DNA of 34,846 bases from Porpidia crustulata (Eukaryota): positions 1-34,846 of the forward strand of contig CAXUWE010000009.1 in assembly GCA_964255105.1 (NCBI GenBank), read 5' to 3'. Numbering within the stretch: position 1 is the first letter of the stretch; each line of letters begins with the position of its first letter. The translations under genes and the position numbers were made by a program. Positions 3,258 through 33,127 of this stretch are shown piece by piece. The notes under the pieces are model-generated. The model searched no databases. It was not told where the DNA came from and was given only the letters and a program-made list of their open reading frames with translations.

Positions 3258-6200
3258 TTACGCCGCTTGAACAATATCGCGTACAATTCTCGCAGCACGG
3301 TGTAGCTGCTTGACAAAAGCTGCGGTCCGTTCCGGCGAACCACCGGTGAGGCAAACACGAATCCTACGGTCAGAGGTTAATCAGGGTTTCTAGCAGAACT
3401 TTGATTGGACGTGACTTACTCGCTTTTCTCCGGCCATATGATAGTCCAAAACCCCTCGGCATCGGGTAATAGGGTGGCGAAGTCCTCGACGACCATTTCC
3501 GTGTCGAGTCCGTTGCTCTGAGCAAAGATGGTGGGGAACGGTTTGCCGAAAAAGATGTGCTCGCTGAGGAAACGCGGCTTTGGCGTGCCGGCGTCGGATG
3601 GCCACAGCCAGCTCAGCACCTCGAAGACTCGCATGTAGCTGCGCCCGTTAAGCATGGTTAGCATATCGGCGTGCATCTGCTTGGTGGCGGGCGATAGGAG
3701 AGCCGCCAGTCGGGCTGTCTGGCCAGGTTGGCTCTGATCTTGATCTTGATAGGCCTTGGCGGCTGCGTCGCAGAAAGTAACAACCGTGGGCGTGGCTTTT
3801 TGCACGGCATCAGAACGGCCGGTGTGGTAGTGAGCTGCGCTGGTAGGCTCCCACGAAGGGATGTTTCGTCCAAAGAAGAGCCGCAAAGCGAGTTGAAAGG
3901 TGATGTCAACGACTGCCTTGATAGATACTTTGCCCTGCACTAGGAAGTCGGTGCCAAATTCTGTGAGATGCTCTCGCACGTATGTTCTATTTGCCGGCGA
4001 GGTATACTCGAGGAAGCGATTCCTAAGCACACTTATGTGACCCTCAATTTCAGGCGTTGTTTGAAGAATGACTTCGGCGAGCTCGGTTCTTGACGTAAGC
4101 CTGCCGTTCAGCTGATCCTGGTTGGAACTGGGCATATACTCATCGATGGCGGTGACCATCCATTCCAAGAGACGTGCAGGAGTGGTGCCATCGATGATTC
4201 CATGCTCGGTGATCGAGCCTGAGCGACCATTCGCGCTTACGTAAAACTGTAACACTTTGTCAAACCAGCGATTCGAACCATCGCCGATGTAGCCCTGTCG
4301 CGCGTTTTCTTCGGGCGTTTCGGGGCATCCATCATCCAAGCACAAGACGAACATAGCGGCATCAATGACGTGGAAGTATTTGGCATTAGCAAGGCTCAAT
4401 GCCGACAGCTTCTCTCTCTTCTGTGAACAAGAATGTGAGCACGGAGTAAAAAAAAACGATATGGGTGATTAGCGTTGACTTACTAGCGCCCACGAGTCTC
4501 TCTCATCCGTGGTCAGTATACCTGGCCAGACACCATCGTCTTCCACTTGCGCTACGATGGCTTCAAACGTGGACTTAAGCTCTTCAAACGGCACGTCTTT
4601 TCCATGATCCTGATCTTGAAGCATCACCTTGAAAACGTGACCTCTCCTCAATACTGCGATATAATCGCGAGCACTTTGGTCTTCCGAATCGTAGCGCATC
4701 ATCTTGTCGCACCCAACATGGGGCACTCGCACCGAATTGAAGAGCCAGTCCCATCTCCACGTGCACTCAGGCTTGCCACCGATTCGAAGAGGCTCGATTG
4801 TACCGGCCTTCATCGCCCGCTTGAAGGACAGGGCCGTCGAAGAGATGATGGCGGCACGTTCGGCCTGCGATTGAGGTCTCTTGCTATTGCGGTGTGCCCC
4901 CATAATACTAGCGTACGGAGCGATCGGGCTCCGTCTGGACAGCCATCGAGCATCCGTGAGGATGTCGTTATACCAGCCATTGCTCTTGTCATGGTCGTGC
5001 GTCTTGAACAATTCCTGAAAAACCTGGCGAGAAGGGCTACCCGGGGCTCTCATGGCCCGAATTTCTTGTTGAATCGACTCGAGCTGTTGAGGGCTGTAGA
5101 GATGTCTATTCGCCTCGAGCCAGAAGTTGAGAGCATCGTCCAGGTCCGGCAGGGGCTGGTCGGGCAGCTCTTCGTTAAGCCGGCAACAATCCCAGCCATG
5201 GCGAGGCTTAGTATTATCGTTATGTTCATGGCCATTTGCAATTACACCATTCATATTCTCAGGCGATGGCATTGTTCCACTCTTATTTGCGCTCTCCTGT
5301 TTCTCGTCGTCGTCGGCTTTGACTTTGACTCTGCACTTCAGATCCATCCTCGATACAATTAGTTTGGCGAGGGCAATAATGCTTTGTGCGCCAATTAGCT
5401 CGGATGTCTGCAAGGGCGTCTGGAAGATATGCTTGATCCAATTCTTAAGTTCGATAGAGACCAGGGAATCCAGCCCGAGTGACATTATAGGTTGATCGGC
5501 TGGCACGTCGTCGCCTATAAAGGCAGCGAATTTGTCGAGAAGGGCCTGCTCAACGATATCCTCGGCTTCCTCCACCGACTCGGCTCGTTCAACGGCCTGC
5601 GTGGCACTTGGCTTTTTGCTGTCGGCCGCACTGTTGATTGTTGCTTCTTCTTGGCTCCTCTTACTAGGCACGTGGTCGAATAGATGGTCACTTAAAGCTG
5701 TCTGGCCTATGGCGTCTTCCATGGTGTCGCGATCGAAGGGCATAATACATTGCAGGGCTTCATCAACTCGGGCTTGCGGTCCCATGGCATACTTGAGCGT
5801 AGCGAGGAGCTCGCGAAACGTTACAGCGCCAATGATGCGCGCGATCTCGCTGTTCTGATCGAGGGCCCGGGCAATCTGTTCCGACCCCTCCACGGCGCCA
5901 ACATTGATAGTAGTGTACTGGGTGATGCCTTGATTGCCTTGGGTGTGGACGCGGGCAAAGGCGTCCTGGAAAGCATTGCCTGCCGCATAGTTGCTTTGGG
6001 AGGGCGAGCCGATGAGACTAGCCACGGACGAAAGCATGATGAAGAAATCTGTTGTCTCCGGCGAAACAAACGCCTTGTGCATGTTCCGCGTGCCCCAGAC
6101 CTTGGGGTTCACGGCTGTTTCCCAGTGCTCGAGCTCCATGTACTCCAAAGGGTGGTCACAAAGCACCAATGCACTCTGGATAACGCCTCTCACCGGTGGG

Positions 6201-9200
6201 AGTGCCGCTATTTCGTTGGTAGCAGCACGTGTGCTCTCCTCATCGCCGATGTCACACTTGAGAATGTGGAGTGTACCTCCAAGTTGGCTAATACTCTCCT
6301 CTAACGACACCCGTTGCTGAGAATCGACACTCCGGCGCGATAGGGCCACGATATGACCAGCCCCGTGCTCAACGAGGAAGCGGCCCATTCTCTTGCCCAG
6401 ATCACCGAGGCCACCTCCAATGACATACGTCCCCTCGTGATGTAGTCGGAGCGGAGGGACCTTTGGCCTGGGTGCTTGCACAACCGTCTGTTCGTCGGCC
6501 ACCAACACTAGCTTTCCTACGTGTTTCCTCGCAGCGATGAGACGGAAGGTTTCCTCGATGCGACTTATAGGGTACGTCGTCACTGGGTAGACGGGCTTCA
6601 CAAGGCCCTTGTCAGCCATGGCGAATACTTCTCTGAGCCCGCGGGACACATATTCAGGACGCAGTCGGTACATGTGCGAAACGTCCACGGCAGCAAAGGT
6701 CGCCTGCTTTTCGAAATTGGCCATGTTCAACTGGCTGCGGCCAAATATATCCGACTTGCCAATCTCGACAAACGTCCCGAATTGGGCAACGCAGTCCCAG
6801 CTGTCCATCAGGAGCTCGCCCGAGAGGGAATTAAGGACTACGTCAACACCTTTGCCCTGAGTCGAGCGCAGGATGCCTTTCTTGAAATAACGGGAATGTG
6901 AGGAGAAGATGTGGTTTTCAGGTATGCCGTACTGGTCCTGGATCAGCTTTCGCTTAGGGACGCTACTCACCGTGGCAAATATCTCAGCTCCGATGAGCTT
7001 CGCGAGCTGGATGGCGGCTTGACCTACACCTCCCGAGGCTGCGTGAATCAAAACGGTTTGGCCCTTCTCAAGCCGGGCAACGTGGGTGAGACAGTACCAA
7101 GCCGTGTAGTAGACAACGGCGAGAGAGGCGGCGTCGGCGAAGGTAATGGAATCTGGGATGGCTACTGTACCAGCGCTGTCAATTCGCACCAGGTTTCCAA
7201 AGGGGGCTACCATGAGTCCAAGGACCCTGTCGCCGGTTTTCCACAACGATTGAACATTAGAGCCGACTGCAGTAACTACTCCAGCTGCCTCGCCGGTCAT
7301 TGCTGATCCCGGTTGCATCTGGCCCAAGGAAATGAATACATCTTTGAAGTTAACACCGTGCGCGTAAGCCTGTACCTCGATCTGGTCTGGGCCAAGCGGC
7401 TCTGCCATCATGTTGTTGTCCACGAAGCGAATAGTGTTGAGCAAGCCCGGTACCTGGACGTCAAACATTAGAGGCCTATCTTTGTCGAGATATTTGCACT
7501 CTATCATAGATGTAGCGCCCTGGTCTTGGTCTTGGTTCTGACTGTCGGTGTAACTTGCAAAGCGGTCGTCGGGAATGACTCTGGGGATGGTCAATTTGCC
7601 ATCGCAAATAGTGTACTCCAGCTCTTCAGCGCAAACCGTCGGAGAGACAGGCCAGAAGGATGACATGGCGATTTTGGTGAGGGTCTGCACAATACGCTCA
7701 ATCTCCAGGCTTCCGTGTCCGCTTCCGGAAAGCTGGATCTGGTCTTGGATGTCGACCGTGATGAGCCGCAGACCAGGATTCTCGCGTCGGACTACCCTCC
7801 TCATGCCGTTAACCATGTTCTTCAGGGCCGCAGTCTCAGCAGATGGTGGCGAATATTGAAAGCTGACCCAGAGGACACTCCTGCCTTGGAGCAGAAGCTG
7901 TTTTGTCTGCTCAAATGCTTCCTGGGTCGGATCCAGCAGGAGCGGGTGCTCGGCAGAGTCAATAACTATCAGAAGCTTGTCGGCATCTGTTGCAGTGTCG
8001 GTCGTGCCCCAGGCTTGCTGGCTGCATGTAACACCTTTTTTGCCCAAAGAGAGACGTATTGCGTCTCCGAGGGCCACCTGAGAGGAATGCGAGTACCCGA
8101 GACGCACACTCGCTTTCATCTCCATCACAGAACCTGGACCTTGAATGTCCTGGCTGTCACTTCTGTCCAATGTGCCTGTAGCTTGAGTCACAATCATAGT
8201 ACTGATTGCGCTCGAACTGCCAGTGTGAGCTGGAATGGCAAGATCCGTGCCGCTGAAGCCATGACGCTTCAATACACTGTCCCATTCAGATACGGAGAGG
8301 AGCGGCCCATCCTTGCGTCCATCTTCAGACATCCACCAGCCCTCCAATGTGCCAAAAATGACGTTTTGGGCGGCCGCGAGCTGCGTAAGTTCTATGAGGA
8401 TGAGTCGACCGCCTGGCTTTAACAATTTCCGCACATTTGTCATCGTGACGTCCATCAGAGGTGTGGCATGCAACACGATGGAGGCAACAATCACATCAAA
8501 TGTATGAGCGGTGTAGCTCTGAGCGAGCGGATCGCGTGAAATATCGAGTGTCTTGAAGTCGATCTGGCCAGTCCACTTGCTGAACGTATTTTGCGCACGC
8601 ACGAAGAAGCCCGAGGAGATATCGGTATAGGTGTACTTATCTAAAAGTAGCCGGCCGTTGCGGTTGATGCTTTCCATGAGCGGCAGGGTTGCGCTGCCGG
8701 TACCAGCACCAATCTCCAAAATCTTCATCTTGGGGTTTTTGTGAACGAGAGTTAGCAGATACTCGGCCCCTTGCGCATAGTGGCAGTTGAACAGGGTGGC
8801 CTCGGAGTAAAGTCGCCCTAGCAAGTTGTCCTGAATCAGGAGCTCGAGTGAGTCCGCTTTTCCAGTGAAGAGATCAAAAAGCCACGGCCCGAAGCGACTC
8901 AAGGTGAACCCGACGATATTATCATTCCTTGCCTGCTCTATGAGCTGGGCTTCGTCTTCAGGAGTGACACCGGCCAGAAACCGTTCGGCCTCGTACTGGT
9001 TCCACTCTGCCATCCAGCTTAGGAGTTTGGAGAGGTGGGGAGAGCATGCCGTGGATATGTTCTCCTCTCGCATGCGGTTGACTACCCTGCGAATGAAAAT
9101 CGTTGCGACTTGGTCGTTGAGACGCAGTTGCTCCTCGGCGATGAGCTTACTCAGCGTTCCGTACCCGACATCGAGGAGGCTGTGGCGAGAAACGTGATCC

Positions 9201-12200
9201 ATGAAGTCGTTTTGTGTGATATGATCGGCGTCGGGCTTGTATTCTAGTCGGTAACTTGTTTTCTGCTTAAGGGAATTGGTCGAATTGACTTCTCCAACGA
9301 CTTGAGGCCGAATCGCGCTACCCGTGAACACGGGACGGAACGTTCCATTGCTCTGCTTCTGAAAGGCACAGAAGTTCCCTGACGCTGACCGTCGACTTTC
9401 TGGAAACAAATAGAAAGTCACCAGAATCTCGGCGCCTGGCGTAGTATCAATGTCGGCAGATATTGATACTTCGCCGATCGTGACGGGCATCATGGGTGCG
9501 ATAGTGCACTCTCGTCGGAACACTACGGCCTCTAGCTGGATCATGGAGTCGAAGGCAGTAGGATGAATGGTATGCGGCTGCATATAGTGCCCAGGCATCA
9601 TTTGCGCGACATTGTCAACGACAATCCTGGCAAGACCGCAGCACTTGCCAACATGGATCTCTTTTAGACCCTGAAAGCTGGGGCCATAGGCATTCCCTGA
9701 TGCTGTGAGTTCACCATAGAGCTCTGCTGGATCGACTTGGATATTAGAGTTTGTCTGGATGTCCGCCAACATTTCAGTGGCGGCTGCCATCGTCAGATGA
9801 CCCAGGCCATCATCAATTCTGGTGCCCTTGAATTCATCGAACTGGGATTGAGACTTGCTAGTATCGGATTCGCTTGCGGTAAGGCCGGTGCAGTGTTCGA
9901 TCCAAGAGTCGATCTGAGAATCGTAGGAGAGGACCCGGAAGTACTCCCAGGGACTTCCCGCATATTGACGCGCAGGGCTAAGTGTGAGTTGCAATTCGAC
10001 CTCGCGGTCGCCTTTCGCACCTGCACCGTCACTAGGGACCACGACGGGTTTCGCGAAGGTGACGTCTCGGAAATTGATGCACTTGAGACGACTTGGAATC
10101 TTACGTATGTGGAACAGTTGCTTCATGGCTTCGGTAACCATGGTCAAATAGCCGACACCCGGGAAAATGACGAATCCCTCGACAACGTGGTCTCGCAGCC
10201 ATGGGAGAGTTTGTAGGCTAACGTGATATCTCCATCGCGGCTCATTTGGAGAGCTATGGACGTCGAAGAGGCCGAGAAGGTCATGGTTAGGGAAGGGACG
10301 AAGACGGTGGCCTTTGCTGAGCCTTGATTCGTGCCAGTAGGTAGAGTGTTCCCACGCATACGTTGGAAGATTGTCAACGACCTGATACTGAGAGTTTGAG
10401 CTAACATTTCCACGCATTACAGCATCTAGCTGAACGGGGTATCCAGCTTCGAACGCCTTGCCTACTAAGCCAAGGATAGTACTCACTGCGCTTTCGTTGC
10501 GGACAAGGCATGGAAGGTAGGTGTACTTGAAGGAACCACCCGAAACTTTGAAATCGGACAAGGACTGCCTCAACGGTCCAGCGAGCGCGGAGTGGGGACC
10601 AATTTCTACCAGGACGTTGTTGGCTGCGGAACCAACAACAGATAAGTGCTCTGCCACCAACCGAGACGCGGCACTGAATTTGACTTGTGAAACCAGGTTG
10701 GAGACCCAGTAAGAAGGCCCAAAATCGGACAGCTTGCGGGTACCAGTGACCGATGAGTAGAAGGCAAGATCCTTCCGTGCCATACCATGAGCCATGTTGT
10801 CCAGGGACGAGAGATATGATTGTGCCACCACCTCCATATGATGAGAATGGTAGGCCGAATCCACCTGGAGTCGTCGATTGAAGACAGACGCAGTGTCCAA
10901 GATAGCTTGGAGCGCTTCGATGGCCGCCAGGTCGCCAGAAATGGTGGTACTCTCGGGACTGTTCACGCAGGCTACGGTCACTTTGCCCTTGCCGCTGGCG
11001 ATGCCCTGGATTCTTTGTTTGATTGCTTCCTCTCCTTCGCCAACAGCCAGCATAGTCCCCGATGTCGCGTTCAAGCCTTTGGCCACGGAGGACCAAATGC
11101 CTCTGTTGTAGGAGGCTTGCATAGCGGCCTCCTTGCCGAGAGCACCCGCAGCGTAAGCGGCTGCAATTTCTCCTGAGCTGTGGCCACACACAGTCTGCGG
11201 TCGGATGCCGTAACTCTCAAGTAGGTCAACCAGGGCGATCTGAATCGCTGTTGTACATGGCTGGGAGAACCTGCTATCACCGAGTCGCACTGTCTTCTTG
11301 TCCCGAGACAGTTCCTCGAGAAGGTCCCATTCGCATCCAAGGCCTTTCATGATCTGGTCACAAAGTGCTACTGAGGATGCAAAGACTCGTGAGGTTGTCA
11401 AAAGCTCGCGACCCATGGCGAACCACTGAGCTCCCTGGCCCGTGAAGATGAAGGCCATGCCGACTCCATTTGCTGACTTGATAGGGCGTAGCTTCGAGTC
11501 TCCTAANNNNNNNNNNTTCTTTAGCTCTTCCGTTTTGCTTGCCAGGACTCTTGAGCGCCAAGGGAGTTTTGAGCGACGAATATTCAATGTGTAAGCCAGG
11601 TCAATGAAGGGAGTGCAACGGTCCTGGTCGGACGCGAGCCATTGTTGTAGCTTGGAAATCACATTGCTGAGCGACGTTTCAGAGTTTGCCGAGAGAACTA
11701 CCGGCATTCTTTGGGTGTGGTGATATTTGTAATCTCTGTCGGCAATTCCATTAGAGTGTCCATTGGAGTGTCCATTTGTAAGTCCATTGGCGTGTACGTT
11801 AGCATGTCCGTTAGAAAGTCCATTAAAGTTTCTATTGGAGTGTCCATTGGGTAGACGAGAATTAGTAATAGGGGCGTGGTCGTATGCCTCAAGAATGGCA
11901 TGAGCATTAGTTCCCCCGTAGCCAAAGCTGTTGACAGAGACTCGCCTGGGTCCAACATGACCTTCTGGCGTGAGCGATGTAAGTTCCAGTGGCACCTGGG
12001 CACAAATATCAGCAGCTAAGTAAAACAAGTGGGCCTCTCCATCGAAATAGACCTCAACTCACTTTGATGCCTCTCTCTTTAAGACGCAGAGTTGGCTTGG
12101 GGTTGATGAAATTAAGATGCGGCGGGATCTGATTCTTTTTCAAGACCATGACAGCTTTGATCACGCTTGCTACTCCGCTAGCAGATTCCAGATGGCCAAT

Positions 12201-13562
12201 ATTGGTCTTTATGCTCCCCTAATGCGACACGGATATCAGCCTTTCATCGGCCAGGGTTTGGATACAAAAGCTTTGTAATTTTTCTGTCTGGGGCGAGAGA
12301 TGCTGCAAAGAATGTCTGACACGCTAGAAACGGGGTAGCATGAGGGACAAGACGATTGGTTCAACGTACAACGGGTATATCAGACTTTCGCCCTGCTTCG
12401 CGCCCGAACACCTTGGAAATGGATTGAATTTCAGCATTGTCGCCTGCAGGACTACCGTGTTAGCATTACCAATGCTAACGAAGGAGGAGGGAAGTAAAAA
12501 ACATACCAGCCGCGGTCCCTGTACCATGAGTTTCCACATACAAAGTCTCGCGGGGGTCAAGGCCAGCCTTGGCATATATTGATCGTGCCAAAGCTTCCTG
12601 TGCATCGGCATTGGGCAGGAAAATGCCAGAAGTCTTGCCATCGTGACCAACCCCTGAGTCCACGATGACTGCATGGACCGCGTCACCGTCGGCCAGGGCT
12701 CGGTCAAGGCGCTTCAGAACAAGAACACCAAGACCCTCGCCTCGCCCATATCCAGCGCCACGATCATCGAAGGTGTAACATTTCCCGTCTTTATTGGTGA
12801 GTTGGCTAGGCTGGTCAGCATCGAGCAATTACGTTTGTAGCGAGGCCACTCACGACATGGCAATGGACTGGTCAGGCGTCAGCAGCAGTTGACTGGCCCC
12901 GGCAAGGGCCAGCGTAGACTCATTTGCCCTCAGCGTACCACACGCTTGGTGTAATGCCACGAGACTGCCAGACTGTATTAAATTACGTTCCGTGAGCAGA
13001 GCAAACATATGGCAGGACTGGTAATACTTACACATCCCGTATCTAGGGTGTTAGAAGAGCCTTTCAGATCCAAGACATATGAGATTCTGTTAGACAGAAT
13101 GGCATCTCCCGACCCTATAATGTGAGTCTTGTGAAGCTGAGGCCCGTCTCTGTAACCCATTCTGTCGTAATCTCGTGCAAACATTGCCATGTGCACAGAA
13201 GTGTTCGAGCCACGCAAGCTCTTGATGGGAATGCCAGCATTCTCGATTGCTTCGTAAGTAGTTTCGAGTAGAAGTCTCTGCTGGGGATCGATACCTGTAG
13301 CCTCAGCGCCGGGGATGCCAAAGAATCGCGCGTCGAAGGCTGATACGTCCTGATCCACATAATATCCGTGACTGAAATTCGTAGCTTCTCTAGCATCTGG
13401 ATTCTCGTGGTAGAAAGACTTCCAGTCCCAGCGGTCTTTGGGCACCTCTCTTAATCCATCCCTCCCCTCAGCCAACATAGACCATAGGCTCTCTGGATTA
13501 TCGGCGCCTCCTGGAAGGCGACAGGCCATTCCGATGACGGCGATCTTGCTTTCCGTTGCCAT
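3258..13562 (-). CDS. Highly reducing iterative type I PKS with C-terminal carnitine/choline acyltransferase-like domain (KS-AT-DH-cMT-ER-KR-ACP-cAT), ~3265 aa, 8 exons
   Basis: Exons 13562-13032, 12972-12854, 12805-12507, 12443-12370, 12218-12063, 11995-4484, 4420-3420 and 3363-3258. All introns are GT-AG; exons total 9798 nt, in frame. KS DTGCSGSL / ETHGTGT / [34 protein letters not shown]; c[49 protein letters not shown]; c[28 protein letters not shown] 10-N gap at 11507-11516 lies in the KS-AT linker. Confidence 0.95.
11507..11516. other. Assembly gap (10 N) inside the HR-PKS coding exon
   Basis: Run of ten N. Confidence 1.
11745..11855 (-). repeat. Coding low-complexity (S/T/A)NG(H/L) repeat in the KS-AT linker of the HR-PKS
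   Basis: Translation [35 protein letters not shown]; imperfect 12-nt units such as ggagtgtccatt on the + strand. Confidence 0.8.
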
Positions 13563-20100: not shown

Positions 20101-23100
20101 AGTATTAATTCCTCGGCCTTTTTAGGGGATAATCTGCACGCCAGCATCCCAGACGCGCTAGCCACACAATTATCGGTCATCATCTTCGCTCGGGATGCCA
20201 CAACACGCAGTGTATCCTCTAATGTCAGCACCCCCGAGAAGCATAAAGCAGCGTATTCGCCGAGACTGTTGAGATCAGCCCGCTAGTAGATAAGAGACCT
20301 CCAGGGCGCTGACGTACCTATGACCCATAACATATTCGGGCACTATCCCCCATGACATGAATATTTTCGCGAGCGCATATTCTAGTGCAACGCACGCACA
20401 TTGTGATGCGATGACCTGTTCAGCGCCGTCTAATGCTTTTACTTCCCTCCGATCTTTACATAAATTACTGAGAATGCTTGGGTATCCCAATCCTTGAATA
20501 ATGCCATCACAGTTCATGATGATCTCTCTAAAAAGAGGGAATGCGTACATCAGTTCTTCTCCCATACCGTGATACAGACCGCCTTGTCCAGAAAAGACGA
20601 AAATAATGGCTGAAATCTTCTGAGCAGGAATAGAGTTGACAGCTTTGCAATGTTCTAACCTTGTCCGCAGATCATCAATAGAGGTGCATACCACGGAGAT
20701 GCGATAATCATAGATCTGACGTCGCGCAGTTGCAGTATAGCAGATGTCTTTCAACAACGGCTGACGTTCTGTTCCCTCCAGGAATCGAAGATGTCGACGT
20801 ACAGCCGTTCCTAAGGCAATCTGTGATTTTGCAGAAAGTGCAAAGACGTACGCTGATCGCTCCTGATGTTCGGGCTGAGGATTTGATGGCTCAACCCAAT
20901 CTTCTAGGAGGAGGGACGTGTTTGAACCAGCAGCCCCGAAATTATTCAGCATAGCTCTCCTTGGGGTTTTTTGCAAGTGGTTCCATGCTGTAGTCTGCCT
21001 TGGTATGATGAAGCCAGAGCTTTCCAGGTCCGCGAAACTTGGATTGATGTTCTTAAATCCGACTTGTACTGGGATTTTTTTCTCGCGAAGCATGAGCAAC
21101 AACTTAGCCAAACCAGCTGCTCCAGACGCGGACTCACAATGGCCTATGTTACCCTTGATAGAACTGACCACGAGGGGGTTCACCGTTGAGTGATGTGGGC
21201 CAAAGATAGTTCTCAAACTTTCAATTTCGCGTGTATCTCCGGCCTATCAAGTAAGATTAAATAAGTCTGACAAATCAGAGCAAAGGGTAGAAACCTGTGT
21301 GCCTGTCCCGTGTGCTTCTATGACACCAATGGATCCAGGGTCGACATTCGTCTGTTGGAGCAGTCGCTGAAATAGGTCGATTTGCGTTTGACTATGAGGA
21401 TGTGTAATAGAATGGGCATTGCCGCTTTGATTTATCATTACGTTTCTAATTACTCCGTGTATGTGATCGTTTTCCGCGATAGCATCAGACAATCGTTTGA
21501 GAACAAAGAGAACACATCCCTCAGCTCGACAATATCCGTCAGCAGCTGCATCGAAGGGTTTGCAGCCTCCGGTTGGGCTGAGGAAGTGACCTCGGGCTAA
21601 TCCAAGGTACATCTGTTACTTATCAGCAAACAATTTTGTATTTCTGAAATCTGCATGACGAAGATACTGACATCGGGGCTAGAAACCACATTGGCGCCGC
21701 CCGCGATAGCTGCTGTGCAATCGCCGCGTTGCAGAGCTCGGCACGCCTGGTACACGGAGACAATTGAAGACGAACATGCAGTATCAGTGACAATGGATGG
21801 GCCACTGAGCTTATAAAAGTAAGAAATCCTCCCACTGTGAAATGCTCGCAGTGTCCCGGGGGAGTAGAAAACATCAATATCATTGCGAAGATTGTCTGTA
21901 TAATCCCCAGTGGCAAGGCCAATATAGCATCCAGTGGAAGCTCTTTGGAAAGATCGTGATGAGTCCCCTACATATCCAGCGTCTTCGAAGGCTTCCTGAG
22001 CTGCATGCAACAGAATGCGCTGCTGAGGATCCATGGATGTTGCTTCTCGAGGGGAAATGTTGAAAAAGGCGTTATCAAAGCTGCAGGATCTTGGTTTTAG
22101 TTTTCTTGATCAGGTAGGATTTAGGAGTTTGGGAATATCTATACAGGAGCTTATAGTATGCCGAAAAAGAGTGAGTCAAGAGTTGAGACATGCTTAAACT
22201 CCTGATAACAACTGAAAGAGAAGAGACAAACTCAGAAAATCCGAAGACTCACGAGAAGGGATCGTCCAGGAAAGCGCCGTGCTTTGTGGGCATCGAGCGC
22301 GTCTTACGCGAATCCTCCTCTGAACAGTAGTCAGAGACTTTGAACCTGGACTCAGGGATCTCTTGCACGGCATTCAACCCTTGGGACAGCGTTTCCCATA
22401 GCTCTTCGGTCCCCTTCCCTTTAGGAAGATGCACGCTCAGCCCAACAATGGCGATGCTATCTTGGTGGTCACAAGACAAGTGAGATTTACTACTAGCTCT
22501 AAATGGCGAGAGATCCAAAAGTTCTATTCTAGGATCAAGAGGCTGAAAATCTGGGAATAGGGAGCCGGAGCCTGGTCCGAAGGAAAGGAGCTTTACGACT
22601 GTTGCGGGCTCCTGTATTAATAACCCCCTCACACTTGCTGCGATCTCATGAGCTGTGTCGCTCCAATTTACACAGTGTATCAAAAAGTGCCGAACTAACC
22701 ACCCAAGCAGCTCTGAAGTATCGGTATTTGCAGGATCAAATAACGTGCCGTCCAAGGTTGAACGAATGGGTTTTGTAAGTGTGGAGTAAGAGGGGAAGGA
22801 GACGGCCCGACGCCGTAAATCTTCAAGAACTTCGTGGACAACACCTTCGAGTTGATGTCCTCCATGATACCATCCATGAACGTGCGCGAAAGTTGTTGTA
22901 AAATCGGGGACGGCCTGCGCCCTGAACGCACTGAGGTCGACTTTAGGGCCAGAGATAGACACAACGCTAGAATTAGAGATAGCAGATACCTGGACTCGTC
23001 GAGGTGGTTGCTGGGACGACGTGCTAGGTCCCTGCGTCGCAAAGTGCTTTACTAATCTTTCTTCGACCTGACTTGGGGAAAGACCCCAAATTACGAGGGA

Positions 23101-23664
23101 CGATGTCGCTTCTGAGTCGACGACATCGCCAACGGGGTCGCTTGCATTGGCATTGAGGCTCCAGAAGAGACTACGACATGCAATCCAAAAGGCAAGACGA
23201 AATCCTTGAATTCCATTTGTCACAAAGTCGTCCAAGCTGCGCGAGCGTGCAACTATCGCAGCCGGGAGCAAGCCCGAAGAGAAGCCCGTTGTCTCTCGAA
23301 GTCGGTCAAACGAGTCCTCGAATGGTCCATCGACACGCTGTGTCTCGGCCAGATAATGTAACAGCTGGTAGAGGTAGATGGTGGTTACCTGGAGCACCGC
23401 ATGTGTGTGATATTGTGTGACCGGCTTGAGCAAGTCATGTGGGGAGGAGAACAGGGCGGGATCGATGGCGAGAAGATGCTGTGAGTGGGGGTCTAGACTC
23501 GCTATCTCCTGTAAGAAAACCGCATGGCATCTTGACAGAAGAATACTGCCAGCGCTCGCGGATCGAGTATCTTCCTGTGCTGTCTCGGCCGCATTGGGCG
23601 AGAAAATGGACGGCGAACCCTGACCTCCAAATAACACCAGACACTGTACTCTCCGCGCGGGCAT
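17148..23664 (-). CDS. Non-reducing PKS (SAT-KS-AT-PT-ACP-TE), orsellinic acid synthase (OrsA-like), ~2028 aa, 7 exons
   Basis: Exons 23664-22253, 22080-21672, 21612-21295, 21243-20318, 20265-17774, 17727-17270 and 17219-17148 (6087 nt, in frame). SAT FGGQG / [37 protein letters not shown] (split by intron), YAFHS; PT GHDVGG..CPAS and DTLLHAAGF; single ACP GIDSL; TE HDGSG, GWSFGG (split by intron), PGNHF. No methyltransferase or reductive domains. Confidence 0.93.
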
Positions 23665-24925: not shown

Positions 24926-25003
24926 ACGCGAAGGATTCACACGAAGGATTCGCACGAAGGATTCGCACGAAGGATTCGCACGAAGGATTCGCACGAAGGA
25001 TTC
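24926..25003. repeat. Minisatellite: 6 tandem copies of a 13-bp unit (GCACGAAGGATTC)
   Basis: acgcgaaggattc, acacgaaggattc, then 4 exact copies of gcacgaaggattc; no spacers. Confidence 0.95.
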
Positions 25004-25860: not shown

Positions 25861-26936
25861 TTACAAGTGGAACCGCGTTTCGATACATGACACTTGTCGC
25901 GAATGCCAGAGACCAAACAGTCTCTCTGCATTACCTGAATATACGGCGCTTCTCTGACCTGCGTCAAACAATTCTTTACAGCCTTTATCCATCTGATCTG
26001 CTTGGTCGATGACAATTTTCTCACGGGTGAAAGGATAGTCAGTCCCATAGACCAGTCTTTGCTCTCCTCCCTTCCCTAAAGTCCTGAGCAGCCCGTGGAT
26101 CTGATCCGGGAAGGGAAATCCAGCCAAGTCAAAGAAAAATCTCTCTCGCAGTAACTTTCGGAATTTATTGCTCTGATTCTCTCCTCCTTTGAAAAGAGTC
26201 GCAAAAGCGCCGATACGATCCACGATAGAGGGAAGCGCACAGCCACAGTGCGACATGATGTAGGTGATATGGGGATACTTCGATACCGTGCCTGAGAGGA
26301 GTAGGTTGGCAATGGCACGTGTCTCATCAAACATAAATTCCATCATGGGACGAGGATATTCTTCAAGTGGTTCTATCGCCTGCACTCGACCCCCAGGAAC
26401 AAGCAAATTGCAAGAAGTAGGATGAATAAAGGTGATGGCTTTGCGTGCGTTGAGCTTTTCAAAGACTGGGTCCAGCGCCTTGTCTCCAAGATACACTCCA
26501 TTTGCGTTAGACATAATTGCAAGTCCTACTGCCCCAAGTTTGTCCAGTGCATGATCAATTTCAACAATGGACTCCAGAACAAGAGGAAGTGGCAAAGAAG
26601 CAAAAAATCCAAATTGCGAAGGATGATTGGTACAGATTGCAGAGAGCTCCTCGTTGGTTCGACGGGTCATGTTTGCAGCTTGTTCATCATGATTGGGGGT
26701 CAGGTGTGTTCCTGGGGATGTAATGCTTAAAATTGACTTGCTGATATTCAGTCTCTTCATGACGGCAATATGCTCTTCTGCACTCCAGGCCTGGGCTCGT
26801 CAGTGACACAACATGGTACGAGAAGCTGGCTTACAGGAAGGGCAGGCATCCCATCAGGCTTCTCATGGCCATTATCGAGGGCATATTGACGATAGCCTGG
26901 GGCCACAGCATGACAGTGAACATCAATTCGCTCCAT
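25861..26936 (-). CDS. Amidohydrolase-2 family metal-dependent aromatic acid decarboxylase (OrsB / PatG 6-methylsalicylate decarboxylase-like), ~343 aa, 2 exons (26936-26835, 26790-25861)
   Basis: N-terminal RIDVHCH (HxH metal motif), PDGMPALP|AWS, SILSITSPG, FIHP, MEFMFDETRA, MSHCG, FDLAGFP, YGTDYPF. 44-nt GT-AG intron at 26834-26791. Confidence 0.9.
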
Positions 26937-27724: not shown

Positions 27725-29226
27725 ATGGCGGTACCAAACAAGCCCCTCGTGCTCGTATGCAGCACGCCAGTATCTGGACATATTATACCCATGCTATCAA
27801 TCGCAAAACATCTCGTCGCCCGGGGCTATGATGTCTGCTTTGTATCTGGCTCGGGCTATCGCCAACAGATTGAAGCTATCGGCGCGTCTTTTGTCCCGGT
27901 CGAAGGATATGGCGACTTCTATGACCTCAGGGCACGAGACCTCGATCCCCGTTGTATGCGATTTTCAATGTTTAATTTTCCCTTTCAGAAATTACACGGA
28001 ATTGAACCAAAAAATTTTCTTCCAAAATAGCCTATGATCAATTTTTGAACTTCATAATTAATTCCTGATTAAGTAAACTAACTCCAAGATCCTCACTTAA
28101 AGGGCCCATCGTCCAAAAGACACTACAAGGACCTGACAATTTCAACCACGACTTGGTACATATATTTTGTAAATCACTACCCTCACAACATGAGGCTCTA
28201 CAGAGAGCCCTGAAAATTCTCAGCGACAAGCACCCAGAAAAGCCCATTATTCTCATGACCGAGAGCTTAAATTTTGGAGCTTTGCCTATGACCCTCGGTG
28301 TTCCAGGAATCCGACCTAAAGGGTATATAGCCGTTGGGCTCAACCCTGTTCTACTGACCAGTATTGACCATCCACCTTTTGGTCCCGGTTTGCCGCCAGA
28401 CAGCTCTCCGGAGGGCCGAGAGCGAAACAAGTCTGCGAATGAAAGGCAGAAGCAGATTTTTGCTCTATCTCAAACGGCATTCGGGGAAGCACTCATGAGC
28501 GTGGGAGCTAAGAAACCAGATATTTTCTTACTCGACGCTCTCTATGTTTTAGCGGATCGTTTCATACAAATGTGCACACCCAGCGTAGAATACCCGAGAA
28601 GCGATGCTCCAAAAACCTTGCGGTTTGCGGGTGGCTATCCTAAGGCTCCTCGAGACTTGAACCCCACGAGACCGGCCTGGTGGCATGAAGTTACCAGCAG
28701 CAATACCAGGAAGATCATCTTTGTCTGTCAAGGAACCGTTGCTACGGATATTAATAATCTGGTCATCCCTACCATGAATGCGTTGAAGGAACGCTCAGAC
28801 ATCATTGTCGTCGTCGCAGTAGGAAAAAAAGGAGCTGTGCTGCCAGCAGACGTTCCCATCCCGTCAAATTGCAGAGTGGCAGACTATATCCCTTACGACG
28901 ATTTCCTCCCGTACTGTGACGTCTTCGTCACAACCGGGGGCTACGGGTCTTTCCAACGCGCGCTCAATAACGGTACCCCTTTGGTAATGGCTGCTGAGAC
29001 GGAAGAAAAGCCGGAGACAGCTGCGAGGGCTGAATGGGCGGGCGTCGCGGTGAATCTCCGAACAAGTAATCCCTCGATTGACCAGCTCGAACAAGCTATC
29101 GATGAAATTCTTTCAAATAAGAAATACAAAATCAGAGCTTTAGAGATACAAGCCGAGATTGCGATGTATGATCCTGTAGGTGTCATAATAGAGAATATCG
29201 AGGAGTTGGCAGGGAGAAGCGTGTGA
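27725..29226 (+). CDS. GT1-family UDP-glycosyltransferase (fungal phenolic O-/C-glycosyltransferase type), ~450 aa, 2 exons (27725-27953, 28103-29226)
   Basis: N-terminal STPVSGHIIPM with catalytic His; EYPRSDAP; VCQGTVA; UDP-sugar binding box DYIPYDDFLPYCDVFVTTGGYGS..ALNNGTPLVMAAETEEKPE. Intron 27954-28102 (GTATGC...CTAAC...AAG) gives DLDPRWP; acceptor chosen by frame. Confidence 0.9.
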
Positions 29227-29617
29227 TTTGGGAGCTGGTACAGAGACTCGGTTTGGTGTGTTTTAGGAAAAGCTGGGGGTTTTTGCTTACTAGGTAAGGA
29301 AACCCATTCCATTTCCGTTTCCGTTTTCGGCGATCGGCTGGGTATTTAGATTTCAACCGATCATGCATACATTCGATTCAATTTCTTACATCATTCCATT
29401 CTCGAACCTCGATGTCAAGTCCTTTTGAGGTGAGAAGGATAAGGCTGAGGATATTAGGATCGGAGGTGAGGAGGAGCAGATGAGACGAACAAGGTGATGA
29501 CTGGAACAGCCACACCATGACTTCATACATCCAGCTAGATGCTAAGATCCAGCAGAACCTAACTTATTACCCTGAAGATCCTACAAGTCTGCCCTCCTCG
29601 CTTCCTCCCTATCCTTC

Positions 29618-30037: not shown

Positions 30038-31274
30038 GTGCTGTCATCCCTGATACTATATAGGAAATGACTTTTCTTATGCTCGAGGTTATTCTAAGTA
30101 TTTGATTTATTACTAGTATTTACAAGACAATAATCACAACATGTTATATTTAATAAAACCGGACCTAATTATATTTAATTATTATAAGTTTTACAACAAT
30201 ATTTCCTTTTTAAATTAAAATTAGAAAAGAATTCATTTAACATATTGAAACAATTACAGTAGTTTCATATTAAAGATAGTAAACCAAGTCTATATCCATG
30301 GAGCCCCGGCCCAACTGATCTGCCCTTAGACAAGTGAGGCTGCGCCGCGCTATGAATCTTAGCTGACGGTACATGGTGAAATGTGCCGCTTTGCCAACAC
30401 TAGCATGCTGTCATCCTCGCAGCCGCTAGTCTCCTGAGCCGTCCATTCTAAGTATTTTTGGCGTGCACCAACTATGTGTTAGCTCGAGACGAAGCTCCTC
30501 CGCAGACCACACAGGCTGACCGCATAAGCAACCTCCCACATTTCCCCACATTCCCCTTTCTACTGATCCTTCGTCTGGTCAGCGTCTCTTCCTGCTGGAT
30601 CTGAGGGATCGAGGCGATGCGCACGGGACTGGCTGACCATCACTCTTTGTGATTTGGATGCAGTCGCATAGGCAGACACCGGCCTTTTCAAGAAATCCGA
30701 CCGCAGAGCCACCGAAGCCATAGTAGTCTCCGGCACAGTTTGGAAAAGAGTCAGCTATTAGTCGTGAGGCATTTTCTTGATTCGTTAGGTCACAGCGTAG
30801 AGGGCATCTTCCAAGGCAGAGCCCGTGGGTTGTCGTCAGCGTTACAAGTGATGCTTTGTAGTCGCGTAGACAGACACCGGCCTGCCGAACGTGAAAAATG
30901 TAAAATACAGACGGTAATTATACAATCCAATTAGGACGTTTTGTACAAGAACAAACACCCATAGCATGTCAAGTTTTCCTTGGACTTGATCGGGAAAGAT
31001 GATATTAACCCCAATGTGTGGCCTAATTGGGTCGATATCAAGTAGGATACTGAGGCTCAATGATCAAGAGGCCCTTAATTAAGTGGGTAATTCTTGGTGG
31101 CCTCTGCTGACGATAAGGTCCTAGAGCTGTGAAACCGTCAGATAAGCCAAGTTCTCCTCCCCCACATGGTATACTTAGTTTTACTAAAGCTAGGACTACA
31201 TCTCATCCCAGAGACTACGTCTTCTGTATATTCAAATAGGGTTTATCGTACTGCAAAGATCTTATTGCGACAGA

Positions 31275-33127
31275 ATGGGACTCGCAGACACAATAAGTTT
31301 TTCAATTATCAGTCTATGCCTTCCCATAGCTCTGGCCATAGCTGTTCTCTCTAAATACTTTCTTGCAAGCTGTCGACCTCGGAATTTTCCGCCTGGCCCC
31401 CCGACAATTCCTTTTATTGGGAACATTAGCCAAGTGCCCAAAGTAAGAGCTTTTCTAAAGTATGCATCTGTTATCTTACTCGACTCGCGATACTCGCAAT
31501 AACAACAACTAGATTTCATGAATTTGGAGCTGATTATGGCTCAATTGTTGGCTTAAAATTGGGTTCTCAGAGTGTCGTGGTCCTGAATAGCTATGAGCAT
31601 GTAAGGGCGTAAGTTGAAATCCAGTATATCATGGATCCAGTGCAGGAGTTGAAAGGGACCAAGGCTTTTCGACAAGAGGGGTGCTATCTACTCCAGCCGC
31701 CCGAACAGCTACGTCGCCACTGAAATTGTTTGTCCAAATGAGATACATCTCCTGCTCCTTCCGTATGGTAGCGAATGGCGAAAACAACGTAAGATTGTAC
31801 AATCGCTCCTGAACGTGAACGCCGTGGACAATGTACTTCCCATTCAAAACGCCGAAGCAATACAGACCATGTTCCAGCTTCTCCATGATCCTCAAGGCTA
31901 TTATGATCACATTCGCCGATATACCACTGCTGTAATCCTGGCATCGGTTTATGGCCAGCGTGGTGCGCGCTTCGATTCTCCAAACGTGCAGGCTCTCTAT
32001 CATGCTCAAGATCAATTCACGGCAATCTTAGAGCAAGGGGCGACCCCGCCTGTCGATGCATTTCCGTTCTTGAAGATGTTGCCGGAGTTCATGGCGCCGT
32101 GGAAAACGTGGGCCAAGGCGGTTCGCAAGGAGCAGAAGAGTTTGTATCTGTCGCTCATACGAGAGACTAGAGAGCGAATGGAATCAGGAAAGGGCCCCGA
32201 TTGCTTCTTGCATCTGATGCTACAAGATCAAGAGAAGAATGACATGGATGATGAGCACATTGCATATCTGGCTGGGAATCTGGTAAACCAAAGCCCTACT
32301 CCCAGAAGTTCGACTGTTTTTTCTGACATCTACAGATGGAAGCTGGCTCAGACACCACTGCTTCTACGTTACTTTCATTTCTTCTAGCAATGATCAAATA
32401 TCCGGAAGAATTCAAGAAGGCGCAAAGGGAGGTCGATCAAGTGTGTGGCTCATTGAGATCCCCAACATCCGATGATATCAGTCATATGCCTTTCATTAGC
32501 GCATGCATGGATGAGGTAACTACTATCTTAAATTCCCTGTATAGCTCTGACTTGGCATTTCAGACACTTCGATGGCGTCCGGTGGCAGCCGGTGGAATTC
32601 CCCACCTGCTGACGCAGGATGATACCTACCAAGGATATCTCCTGCCTAAAGGCACCATCTTCCTTGCCAACACCTGGGCAATTCACCATGACGAGACCCA
32701 GTACGACCAGCCTGCCGAGTTTAGACCCGACCGTTTCTTAAACAACAAATTTGGGACCCGTATTCCTGTTGACGAGAGCACGGAGGATCATCGGAGAATC
32801 TCATATGGATTTGGTGCGGGAAGACGAGTGTGTCCAGGGCAGCGGTTAGCCAGGAATTCATTGGTAAGTGGCTTGTCTGATTTCAGAAGATCCATTGCTA
32901 ATAGGAGATTGGAGATGGTGAATATGGCCAAGATAGCTTGGGGCTTTGATCTTTCCCCTGGGTCGGGGGCTGTTAATATTGACATTAATACAGCTTTCTC
33001 GGATGGATTTCTCATCGCGCCAAAGAAATTTCCTATCTTGTTTACACCACGATCTGACAGGCATAAAGAGGTCATTACAAAGGAATACGAAGCTATTAAA
33101 CCATTCTTTGTAAAGTATGAAAAGTAA
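31275..33127 (+). CDS. Cytochrome P450 monooxygenase, CYP619/PatH-PatI-like (methylphenol hydroxylase type), ~530 aa, 6 exons
   Basis: Exons 31275-31459, 31513-31608, 31664-32282, 32336-32515, 32564-32863 and 32915-33127 (1593 nt). N-terminal TM helix + FPPGPPTIPFIGN; LFDKRGAIYSSRP; GATPPVD; I-helix EAGSDTT; ExxR (E|TLR after splicing); PDRF; heme motif FGAGRRVCPG. Subfamily call is from recalled motif similarity. Confidence 0.92.

Follow-up and report, generated by a model that had tools for sequence, protein, structure and literature searches.

Fungal beta-1,3-glucan synthase is the target of the papulacandins, a classic group of inhibitors that never became drugs, in part since their analogues are hard to make. 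No published gene cluster for this class of compounds was found in the literature searched, so that a gene-by-gene comparison is not possible. In the ors cluster of Aspergillus nidulans, the orsellinic acid synthase OrsA, an NR-PKS without cMT, adjoins the amidohydrolase OrsB; the cluster is not known to hold a glycosyltransferase (GT) or an HR-PKS with a cAT domain. A cAT domain acts in the formation of luteodienoside A in Aspergillus luteorubrus, where, according to the available text of PMC10901484, that of LtbA unloads the polyketide onto a glycoside made by the clustered glycosyltransferase LtbB. The same text describes a C-terminal cAT as release domain of the HR-PKSs Tv6-931 (Trichoderma virens), which uses polyols, and MaPKS17a (Metarhizium), which hydrolyses. 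In Fusarium, FGSG_03964 (PKS14) lies inside the published 'Orcinol' cluster interval FGSG_03971-03956 (available text of PMC4198257), and a published paper connects PKS14 with orsellinic acid and orcinol. For the PKS48 cluster, the available text of PMC6480918 states no product.

The window analysed here is a stretch of 34,846 nt from Porpidia crustulata (contig CAXUWE010000009.1). From the final base of the HR-PKS stop codon at 3258 to the final base of the P450 stop codon at 33127 it holds five intron-bearing, intact genes according to Pfam and gene models: an HR-PKS with a cAT domain, an NR-PKS, an amidohydrolase-2 decarboxylase, a GT1 glycosyltransferase and a P450 (Table 1). A sequence-only reading of the same DNA had described these five enzymes as co-located and apparently intact, and both statements hold. 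The gene models were derived from homologue alignments and GT..AG introns (44-172 nt across all five), and each forms a single open frame; the statement on intactness covers everything except ten masked bases (N) in the linker between the KS and AT domains of the HR-PKS. An in-frame stop in the cAT domain (4469-4471) does not affect this assessment, because it sits within a 63-nt intron, whose 21 codons are missing from homologues and which is flanked by Carn_acyltransf profile positions 2-231 and 226-505, one on each side. All catalytic motifs of the cluster proteins are present when read by eye, and the cluster genes are under purifying selection, since dN/dS amounts to 0.05-0.37 in all 17 exon comparisons with relatives. 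Between the five genes, none of the 109 intergenic ORFs (at least 45 aa) of the window reached the Pfam cut-off. The contig extends 3.2 kb and 1.7 kb past the two ends of the cluster.

Table 1. Position, strand, exon structure and domain content of the cluster genes and of selected features within them.
Feature	Position	Strand	Exons	Pfam matches	Remarks
HR-PKS-cAT	3258..13562	-	13032-13562, 12854-12972, 12507-12805, 12370-12443, 12063-12218, 4484-11995, 3420-4420, 3258-3363	KS, AT, DH, cMT, ER, KR, ACP, Carn_acyltransf; 3416-13799 (-)	KS-AT-DH-cMT-ER-KR-ACP-cAT; 3265 aa; 8 exons; Pfam and homologue-based model
cAT domain and C-terminal tail of HR-PKS	3258..5155	-		Carn_acyltransf profile	Alignment with 7 full-length homologues
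cAT-domain intron	4421..4483	-			63 nt; GTAAGT donor, CACAG acceptor
10-N masked run	11507..11516				HR-PKS exon 6, KS-AT linker; 4 X residues at 553-556
NR-PKS	17148..23664	-	22253-23664, 21672-22080, 21295-21612, 20318-21243, 17774-20265, 17270-17727, 17148-17219	SAT, KS, AT, PT (PKS_DH_N/PS-DH), one PP-binding domain, Thioesterase; 17165-23730 (-)	SAT-KS-AT-PT-ACP-TE; 2028 aa; 7 exons; Pfam and homologue-based model
Amidohydrolase-2 (ACMSD/LigW-type) non-oxidative decarboxylase	25861..26936	-	26835-26936, 25861-26790	Amidohydro_2; 25861-26799 (-); E-value 2.4e-25	343 aa
GT1 (MGT/OleD-like) glycosyltransferase	27725..29226	+	27725-27953, 28103-29226	Glyco_transf_28 N-terminal domain and EryCIII-like_C/UDPGT; 27671-29226 (+)	450 aa
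Cytochrome P450	31275..33127	+	31275-31459, 31513-31608, 31664-32282, 32336-32515, 32564-32863, 32915-33127	p450; 31653-33127 (+)	530 aa; 6 exons

With a confidence only a little above even, we read the locus as a two-branch fungal cluster for an acylated aryl glycoside, the likeliest class being a papulacandin D- or chaetiacandin-like monoglycoside. In the first branch, the NR-PKS would assemble acetyl and malonyl units into orsellinic acid, which the amidohydrolase-2 enzyme would decarboxylate to orcinol; the P450 would oxidise the ring unit, most plausibly at its methyl group, and the GT1 would add a hexose. In the second branch, the HR-PKS, whose reducing loop is complete and whose C-methyltransferase is intact, would build a methyl-branched, partly reduced chain, and its cAT would release this chain by transferring it to a hydroxyl of the glycoside from the first branch. 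The sequence-only reading had proposed such a route, and in outline it is plausible, with all chemical steps, the C-glycosidic bond, the ester site and the product as predictions. The acylated aryl glycoside is supported by the orthology to PKS14 with its orsellinic acid and orcinol, by synteny and by the precedent for cAT offloading; the full papulacandin/fusacandin gene set is not. The gene content includes enzymes predicted to supply the resorcinol-type ring, to attach one hexose and to provide an acyl ester with methyl branches. A second GT (galactose), a second chain-forming synthase and a separate spiroketal oxidase were all lacking from the window, with Pfam matching none of its 109 intergenic ORFs. 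Since the window has neither a second GT nor a second acyl-chain synthase, the expected product would go no further than a papulacandin D- or chaetiacandin-like monoglycoside; the missing genes could be located beyond the ends of the contig. A spiroketal is further disfavoured by the need to oxidise the anomeric carbon with the single oxidase present.

The HR-PKS continues from its ACP into a C-terminal Carn_acyltransf domain in the same open frame, and the claim that it carries its own acyltransferase domain is thus borne out by Pfam. An EH..DG stretch is found in the window's cAT and aligned in the homologues; we presume its His to be catalytic, in keeping with the available passage of PMC10901484. 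The window HR-PKS matches LtbA in its domains and their order (KS-AT-DH-MT-ER-KR-ACP-cAT), and both are accompanied by a clustered glycosyltransferase. However, LtbB is a family-2-like enzyme that makes glucosyl-inositol, whereas the window encodes a GT1, and the likely acceptor here is an aromatic unit provided by NR-PKS, decarboxylase and P450. A PKS of Pyrenophora tritici-repentis with 40% identity to the window HR-PKS may be the ltb homologue mentioned in PMC10901484. Tv6-931 and MaPKS17a share the C-terminal release domain, but they use small polyols or water as acceptors, and the available text of PMC10901484 describes no NR-PKS or GT partner for them.

Over its full length the HR-PKS is 71% identical to a protein of Diplogelasinospora grovesii and 62% to one of Apiospora hydei, and it shares 55% with F. 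sambucinum FSST1_010126 across the C-terminal 1800 aa. It falls in the same group as F. poae pks48, whose gene adjoins pks14, and is orthologous to Fusarium 'PKS48', which is uncharacterised. Among the best 120 matches, the Fusarium PKS48 group shows 49-54% identity; F. graminearum is absent from this group, its top match reaching 40%. The named species closest to the window in their NR-PKS, Xylographa bjoerkii and Pseudomassariella vexata, are absent from the best 120 HR-PKS matches.

The NR-PKS has the order SAT-KS-AT-PT-ACP-TE and no methyltransferase family was detected by Pfam in any of its ORFs, in agreement with the earlier description of a synthase without cMT. Calling it OrsA-like is correct at the level of kind. 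As in the A. nidulans ors cluster, a cMT-less NR-PKS stands beside an amidohydrolase-type decarboxylase, but the Aspergillus relatives are only about 40% identical and carry Cys instead of Ser in the SAT motif, in contrast to all 26 aligned members of the PKS14-containing clade, which have Ser. Identity is higher to X. bjoerkii MMC18_006267 (82%), F. sambucinum FSST1_010125 (57%) and FGSG_03964 (56%). In a FastTree phylogeny of 37 sequences, of which we use the topology alone, the window NR-PKS belongs to one larger clade with FGSG_03964, which nests among Fusarium NR-PKSs whose genes adjoin HR-PKS-cAT and GT; a F. poae protein named pks14 is also a member of the clade. Judged by its sequence, the window NR-PKS is an orthologue of Fusarium PKS14. 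Both window synthases have the domain sets of the PKS14/PKS48 pair and group with them, yet identity is 52-57%, the window is not Fusarium, and F. graminearum seemingly keeps the PKS14 part alone.

The orthology to PKS14 and the published link of PKS14 to orsellinic acid and orcinol would fit a route from orsellinic acid to orcinol, with a ring start that needs no HR-PKS primer. Indeed, NR-PKSs of this type apparently work without an HR-PKS, because F. graminearum possesses PKS14 but no close PKS48 among the best 120 matches. Pairs in which an HR-PKS supplies the primer of an NR-PKS are nonetheless common in fungi, and the two PKS genes are neighbours here. In such a pair, the HR-PKS chain would be loaded through the SAT domain and lead to an alkyl- or alkenyl-resorcylic acid, to be decarboxylated and oxidised towards an alkylresorcinol glycoside. 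We regard this as very improbable: the window HR-PKS possesses its own release domain, the cAT, which primer-supplying HR-PKSs are not known to have. The connection of the F. graminearum orthologue with orsellinic acid and orcinol, as far as the available sources go, also implies an acetyl starter, in a species without a close PKS48 among those 120 matches.

All 23 PDB relatives of the decarboxylase are of the hydrolase/decarboxylase type, among them 5-carboxyvanillate, gamma-resorcylate, 2,3-dihydroxybenzoate, uracil-5-carboxylate and ACMS decarboxylases, and the His-x-His, His, His and Asp, which we take to be the metal-binding motif of an Amidohydro_2 decarboxylase, were recognised by eye. 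Its predicted action on orsellinic acid has indirect support from the link of the PKS14 cluster to orcinol. The P450 displays I-helix, ExxR, PERF-like and heme-binding Cys-pocket stretches; its nearest full-length relatives, from Fonsecaea (54%) and Anthostomella (43%), carry uninformative names, and the PatH-like character given to it by the sequence-only reading, like hydroxylation of the methyl group, is a tentative prediction. The GT is a GT-B fold GT1 enzyme according to Pfam and its PDB relatives; it shares 83% of its residues with X. bjoerkii MMC18_006268 and 70% with F. sambucinum FSST1_010127. With similarly weak scores, its PDB relatives comprise the O-glycosyltransferases OleD and YjiC as well as the C-glycosyltransferases SsfS6 and UrdGT2 (2p6p). 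We know of no sequence mark for aryl C-C bond formation by GT1 enzymes, and C- versus O-glycosylation is not readable from the sequence of this GT.

The two branches may hence converge in the same manner on an O-glycoside of orcinol, orsellinate or a benzyl alcohol, in which case the product would be a new acylated phenolic O-glycoside outside the papulacandins. Most GT1 enzymes of the MGT/OleD/YjiC type are O-glycosyltransferases, and the window has no enzyme clearly required for a spiroketal. Nevertheless, we consider an O-glycoside unlikely. In the papulacandin structure, the sugar is borne by the carbon that is presumably freed when orsellinic acid is decarboxylated. Moreover, the cluster occurs in F. 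sambucinum, Apiospora, Sporocadaceae and Sordariales, lineages from which papulacandin-class compounds are reported in the available sources.

The distribution of the genes was assessed by eye in the tables of the best 120 matches for NR-PKS, GT and HR-PKS. NR-PKS, HR-PKS-cAT and GT fall within a span of five gene numbers in at least six named genomes: F. sambucinum, the fusacandin species, where they are consecutive (FSST1_010125/126/127), F. lateritium (ACHAPO_009549-551, ACHAPJ_011576-578), Fusarium sp. (F66182_7767-7769), Cercophora sp. (OQA88_7921/7922/7925) and A. hydei (KAK8066684/687/688). In at least 12 named genomes all three are on a contig of equal size in these tables, and at least 15 further equal-sized contigs are common to the GT and HR-PKS lists (best 120 each). 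This neighbourhood is found across many Sordariomycetes, including several species of Apiospora, the genus of a papulacandin producer. Synteny of the gene set thus extends to many genomes, some of them from genera known to produce compounds of the papulacandin class. Two F. sambucinum assemblies and at least six Apiospora species contain the cluster; A. sphaerosperma is not among the matches listed, and the correspondence with producers is one of species or genus. The cluster also occurs in many fungi that are not known as makers of papulacandin-class compounds.

Among the relatives of the window, a more distant one from a metagenome (L009; GT 77%) has P450, GT, NR-PKS and decarboxylase adjoining in a different order, and its contig (335,892 bases) also carries an HR-PKS 79% identical to that of the window. 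Six close relatives (L002, L005, L006, L008, L010 and L011) combine NR-PKS, GT and P450, with no decarboxylase or HR-PKS within the 16-21 kb examined. The GT stands alone in L001 and L004, and in L010 and L011 it is 39 residues shorter around the sugar-donor loop. The six partial clusters, together with F. graminearum, which keeps PKS14 with no close PKS48 among the best 120 matches, could be taken to indicate two separate pathways: one for orcinol or an aryl glycoside, and a cAT-HR-PKS that releases its chain by hydrolysis or to a common polyol or sugar, with no joint ester. The hydrolysis by the MaPKS17a cAT and the polyol use by that of Tv6-931, as given in the available text of PMC10901484, would be compatible with this. 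On the other hand, HR-PKS-cAT directly adjoins GT and/or NR-PKS across several orders (at least 12 named genomes), GT and HR-PKS are fused in one gene model in Stylonectria, at least 15 further contigs are shared by their match lists, and the set stays together although its gene order varies between the window, L009, Fusarium and Apiospora. Two independent pathways are accordingly quite unlikely in our view.

A two-branch pathway with a joint ester invites comparison with the papulacandin class itself (papulacandins A-D and G, chaetiacandin, Mer-WF3010, fusacandins, saricandin and BE-29602), whose parts match those predicted for the window: a ring of the resorcinol type bearing a side group of one carbon, a hexose, and an acyl ester that is methyl-branched and partly unsaturated. 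Available reports place such compounds in Apiospora sphaerosperma, Monochaetia, Tainosphaeria and Garciamycella as well as in F. sambucinum and other Fusarium; the cluster itself is found in F. sambucinum and in genera to which producers belong. The same literature describes a long acyl chain with two methyl branches, attached to C-3 of the glucose; a chain of this kind fits an HR-PKS with cMT and ER. In contrast to papulacandins A-C and the fusacandins, the window provides no gene for galactose or a second acyl chain, and unlike for the spiroketal papulacandins, none for a separate spiroketal-forming step.

It is a tentative proposal, to which we give somewhat less than an even chance, that NR-PKS (PKS14 type), HR-PKS-cAT (PKS48 type), GT1, decarboxylase and P450 constitute the core papulacandin/chaetiacandin/fusacandin cluster. 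The ring would then derive from orsellinic acid, with the sugar on the carbon that loses the carboxyl, and the long acyl chain would be passed directly from its synthase by the cAT. The window would represent a minimal version of the cluster in a fungus outside Sordariomycetes; for two of its proteins, a lichen-forming fungus supplies the nearest named relatives. The cluster may have arrived by horizontal transfer, and a papulacandin D-like compound would be its product.

If this proposal is true, papulacandin-type compounds and new variants would be reachable by heterologous expression and enzyme swapping, and a fungal aryl C-glycosyltransferase and an aryl-glycoside-acylating cAT domain would become available as new tools. 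With a simple O-glycoside ester as product, the locus would nonetheless carry the glycoside-mediated release known from LtbA over to an aromatic acceptor. For Fusarium, the core-cluster proposal would provide a product for the orphan PKS14/PKS48 cluster, which is found in several cereal and potato pathogens.

The window is one entire contig of 34,846 bases from a filamentous ascomycete, with ten masked bases at 11507-11516 and ten more at 24014-24023; the latter run falls outside all gene models, in the spacer 5' of the NR-PKS start. Features were taken from stop-to-stop ORFs and Pfam matches, and gene models were built by tblastn with annotated homologues, inspection of each junction and assembly by script (see table). 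The NR-PKS model spans 17148-23664 and the GT model 27725-29226. None of the 109 further ORFs of at least 45 aa between or beside the genes reached the Pfam cut-off (two gave sub-threshold matches), so that the set on the contig consists of exactly the five enzymes named in the sequence-only reading, co-located as claimed there and with nothing further with a Pfam match among them. At the same ORF threshold, no regulator, transporter, second glycosyltransferase or second synthase was found by Pfam within the contig.

Features of the window (domains from Pfam, spliced models) and neighbouring genes in named genomes
Genome	Feature	Coordinates or locus tags	Strand	Domains or family	Model
Window	HET-domain gene	334-1932	+	HET
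Window	HR-PKS		-	KS, AT, DH, C-methyltransferase, ER, KR, ACP, carnitine/choline O-acyltransferase (cAT)	3265 aa, 8 exons
Window	NR-PKS		-	SAT, KS, AT, product-template (PT), one ACP, thioesterase (TE); no methyltransferase	2028 aa, 7 exons
Window	Decarboxylase		-	Amidohydro_2	343 aa, 2 exons
Window	Glycosyltransferase (GT)		+	GT1	450 aa, 2 exons
Window	P450		+	P450	530 aa, 6 exons
F. sambucinum	NR-PKS, HR-PKS-cAT, GT (in this order)	FSST1_010125, _010126, _010127
F. lateritium	NR-PKS, HR-PKS-cAT, GT	ACHAPO_009549-009551
F. lateritium	NR-PKS, HR-PKS-cAT, GT	ACHAPJ_011576-011578
Fusarium sp. NRRL 66182	NR-PKS, HR-PKS-cAT, GT	F66182_7767-7769
Cercophora sp.	NR-PKS, HR-PKS-cAT, GT	OQA88_7921, 7922, 7925
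Apiospora hydei	NR-PKS, HR-PKS-cAT, GT	KAK8066684, 687, 688

The HET (heterokaryon incompatibility) gene is 1.3 kb away from the stop codon of the HR-PKS, and the cluster probably has its left edge here. Next to the HET gene comes a 255-aa ORF (1967-2734) without a Pfam match, which may be its second exon. About 770 bases 3' of the GT (29227-29998) are conserved in close relatives and absent from L009, a more distant metagenome locus; alignment blocks that cover them show 79-85% identity, and every block extends over all or part of the GT as well. ORFs within the stretch lack Pfam matches; the longest (29621-30043, minus strand) reaches only about 40% protein identity. The stretch may be conserved non-coding DNA or a small intron-bearing gene.

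All five genes form single open frames once spliced, and all 20 introns (44-172 nt) have GT..AG borders. Midway through the cAT domain, an in-frame stop (4469-4471) had suggested a pseudogene, a reading that we reject: the stop belongs to a 63-nt intron whose donor is GTAAGT and whose 21 codons are absent from all three homologue alignments inspected. In the HR-PKS an N run masks four residues of the KS-AT linker. By eye, the NR-PKS retains stretches that we take to be the KS Cys/His, AT GHSxG, PT His/Asp, ACP Ser and TE Ser/Asp/His. The HR-PKS retains those of the KS and AT, the DH HxxxGxxxxP, the glycine-rich motif of the methyltransferase, the ER GGVG, the KR glycine motif with its Ser/Tyr/Asn, the ACP Ser and the cAT His, and what we assume to be the metal ligands of the decarboxylase and the Cys pocket of the P450 are likewise present. 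The description of the genes as apparently intact is thus borne out by the open frames, the intronic position of the stop and the active-site stretches. In comparisons of the window with four related metagenome loci, dN/dS ranged from 0.05 to 0.37 in all 17 exon comparisons, a set that leaves out a piece of NR-PKS exon 5 and for which three of the four loci offer no counterpart to the decarboxylase. No RNA records were listed for window positions 24000-33900; the single record listed there, of unstated kind, is probably the source assembly.

The proposed pathway presupposed that the genes stay together in other genomes, and for three of the five this is what we found. Judged by locus tags and accession numbers in lists of the best 120 matches per query, NR-PKS, HR-PKS-cAT and GT lie within five gene numbers of each other in at least six named genomes among the best matches listed (see table), and the GT and HR-PKS searches recovered the same species. 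Adjacent pairs occur in F. coffeatum, F. poae (pks14 beside pks48), F. sporotrichioides, Stachybotrys chartarum, X. bjoerkii and another F. lateritium group, and one Stylonectria gene model fuses GT and HR-PKS. As counted in the match tables, all three genes sit on a contig of identical size in at least 12 named genomes, and at least 15 additional contig sizes are shared between the GT and HR-PKS lists. The cluster family extends over F. sambucinum, at least six Apiospora species, several Sordariales and, among Sporocadaceae, Pestalotiopsis, Neopestalotiopsis, Seiridium and Truncatella.

A metagenome scan with the GT alignment yielded 13 loci. Six of them, with 85-89% DNA identity to the window, carry NR-PKS, GT and P450 consecutively, the NR-PKS having the opposite orientation to that in the window. 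At L009, where the GT is 77% identical and dS exceeds 1, the row reads P450 (-), GT (+), NR-PKS (-), decarboxylase (-), and the contig has the same size as one bearing an HR-PKS 79% identical to that of the window. The genes thus remain together although their order shifts, which normally points to a working cluster. Decarboxylase and HR-PKS were not found within the 16-21 kb covered at each of the six close loci; no HR-PKS of X. bjoerkii or P. vexata is among the best 120 HR-PKS matches, and F. graminearum has neither a close PKS48 (an uncharacterised Fusarium HR-PKS) nor a close GT among the matches listed. The acyl branch therefore looks expendable in some lineages, and a core of NR-PKS, GT and P450 may work alone. 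Two loci (L010:10614-10615 and L011:10614-10615) have lost 39 GT residues in frame, about 333-371 of the window protein, a stretch that contains the glycine-rich sugar-donor loop; their GT is probably dead, though NR-PKS and P450 look whole. At L006:2844-3184 the NR-PKS is less similar (78-81% protein identity versus 85-89% in sister loci), its KS region aligns in broken pieces, and the gene may be decaying. Two further loci (L001:9359-11768 and L004:9359-11768) hold a GT 88% identical to that of the window in AT-rich DNA (GC 0.40-0.41) with neither NR-PKS nor P450; the GT of L001 is neighboured by DIT1_PvcA (isocyanide-synthase-like) fragments, an MFS transporter and an SGL/arylesterase-like gene.

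For the aromatic branch, the sequence-only reading had proposed orsellinic acid and its decarboxylation to orcinol. Relatives of the NR-PKS were sought with the AT-PT-ACP exon, and full-length identities were obtained separately. Among the closest named matches listed is the NR-PKS of Xylographa bjoerkii (78% over the exon, 82% full length); Pseudomassariella vexata follows with 74% and 76%, and exon identities of 50-62% are found in Pestalotiopsis, Podospora, Cercophora, Monosporascus, several Apiospora, Seiridium, Epichloe and many Fusarium. Full-length identity is 57% to the F. sambucinum protein and 56% to FGSG_03964, the F. graminearum PKS14, which is a member of the 90% cluster of the F. 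graminearum match; the F. poae member of the group carries the source name pks14. In a FastTree phylogeny of 37 proteins FGSG_03964 falls within the Fusarium branch, other members of which adjoin HR-PKS-cAT and GT genes. Throughout the clade, the window included, Ser replaces the Cys of the SAT motif that more distant relatives (lichens, Aspergillus, Pyronema) possess. In the accessible portions of the literature PKS14 is linked to orsellinic acid and orcinol, and orthology to this studied enzyme argues for orsellinic acid as the product of the window NR-PKS. The link to orcinol fits the clustered decarboxylase, whose nearest solved relatives decarboxylate aromatic acids non-oxidatively (5-carboxyvanillate, gamma-resorcylate and 2,3-dihydroxybenzoate). 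In the same tree the window NR-PKS and that of the lichen fungus X. bjoerkii form a pair beside Pseudomassariella (Xylariales) within a Sordariomycete clade, with the NR-PKSs of other lichen fungi outside it. This placement suggests either horizontal transfer of the cluster or an origin of the contigs from a non-lichenised fungus.

That the HR-PKS primes the NR-PKS is unlikely, because the HR-PKS has a release domain of its own, the cAT, and because the product linked to the orthologous NR-PKS is one that starts from acetyl. The best reading is that two branches are joined through the cAT domain: NR-PKS, decarboxylase, P450 and GT together would supply an aryl glycoside, to a hydroxyl of which the cAT would transfer the methyl-branched, partly reduced HR-PKS chain. 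The model is LtbA, whose cAT domain, according to the available part of the report by Arishi et al., is required for chain unloading and uses as acceptor a glycoside from the clustered glycosyltransferase LtbB (PMC10901484); by analogy, the window cAT should acylate the aryl glycoside. The same portion of that source describes small polyols as acceptors for the cAT of Tv6-931, hydrolysis by that of MaPKS17a, and a role still unexplained for those of the AF-toxin and sordarin synthases (PMC10901484), from which the database names 'AFT9-1' and 'sdnO' among our HR-PKS matches derive. Treconorin employs a separate hydrolase instead of a cAT domain. Fusarium PKS48-type proteins align to the window HR-PKS in a single block only from about residue 1457 (residues ~1-1460 lie outside). 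Precomputed Pfam lists show no methyltransferase family in the relatives from F. coffeatum, Stachybotrys and Rhypophila, and lineages that make products with unbranched chains may have lost the C-methyltransferase. A genome paper on the FIESC, in the part available, names no product for the PKS48 cluster that it lists and infers that this cluster moved horizontally within Fusarium (PMC6480918). The 'PKS48' of an Apiospora paper is local numbering for another synthase and was rejected as a counterpart.

In the papulacandins the sugar-bearing ring carbon has a hydroxyl on one side, the CH2O group on the other and the second hydroxyl in the para position, and it corresponds to the carboxyl-bearing carbon of orsellinic acid. 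Papulacandin D lacks the galactose, consistent with its formula C31H42O10. As far as the accessible text goes, it is also the form without one acyl chain; the long chain is attached to glucose C-3 and has two methyl branches, an oxymethine and a saturated tail, and a second chain is placed at galactose C-6' (PMC12824588). The same text names Apiospora sphaerosperma, Monochaetia dimorphospora, Tainosphaeria simplex and Garciamycella as sources (PMC12824588), and a second source, also available in part, assigns fusacandins to F. sambucinum and saricandin and BE-29602 to other Fusarium (PMC10142451). The parts of the cluster fit these structures well. The fit is circumstantial, because the same fungi are heavily sequenced, because fungi from which no such compound has been reported carry the cluster too, because the GT sequence is mute on C- versus O-glycosylation, and because the P450 is tied neither to PatH nor to any studied enzyme. 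A PDB search with the GT did not separate C- from O-glycosyltransferases, and nothing in its sequence distinguishes the two activities. For the P450, a search of representatives returned 55 proteins at E up to 1e-30, of which all ten looked up have generic names, and the ESM Atlas labels its relatives only 'Cytochrome P450'. In the literature searched, a fungal C-glycosyltransferase together with orsellinic acid appeared only as a citation of the epipyrone enzyme, and the matches listed include no report of a stromemycin cluster. A papulacandin-class gene cluster was not found either in this search, outside which most subscription journals lie, and a published one may exist; in its available part, a 2026 description of new papulacandins goes no further than a 'presumed common biosynthetic origin' (PMC12824588).

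The acylated aryl-glycoside pathway that had been predicted is supported in part. Overall, the joining of two branches by the cAT explains the locus best, and the most likely product, though unproven, is of the papulacandin class. Since the window has a single GT, HR-PKS and oxidase, it would encode at most papulacandin D or a chaetiacandin-like monoglycoside. By analogy, we file the cluster as a putative case of glycoside-mediated release by a cAT-terminated HR-PKS, novel in that the glycoside would be aromatic, and there is a fair chance that it represents the core cluster, so far missing, of a well-known class of antifungals.
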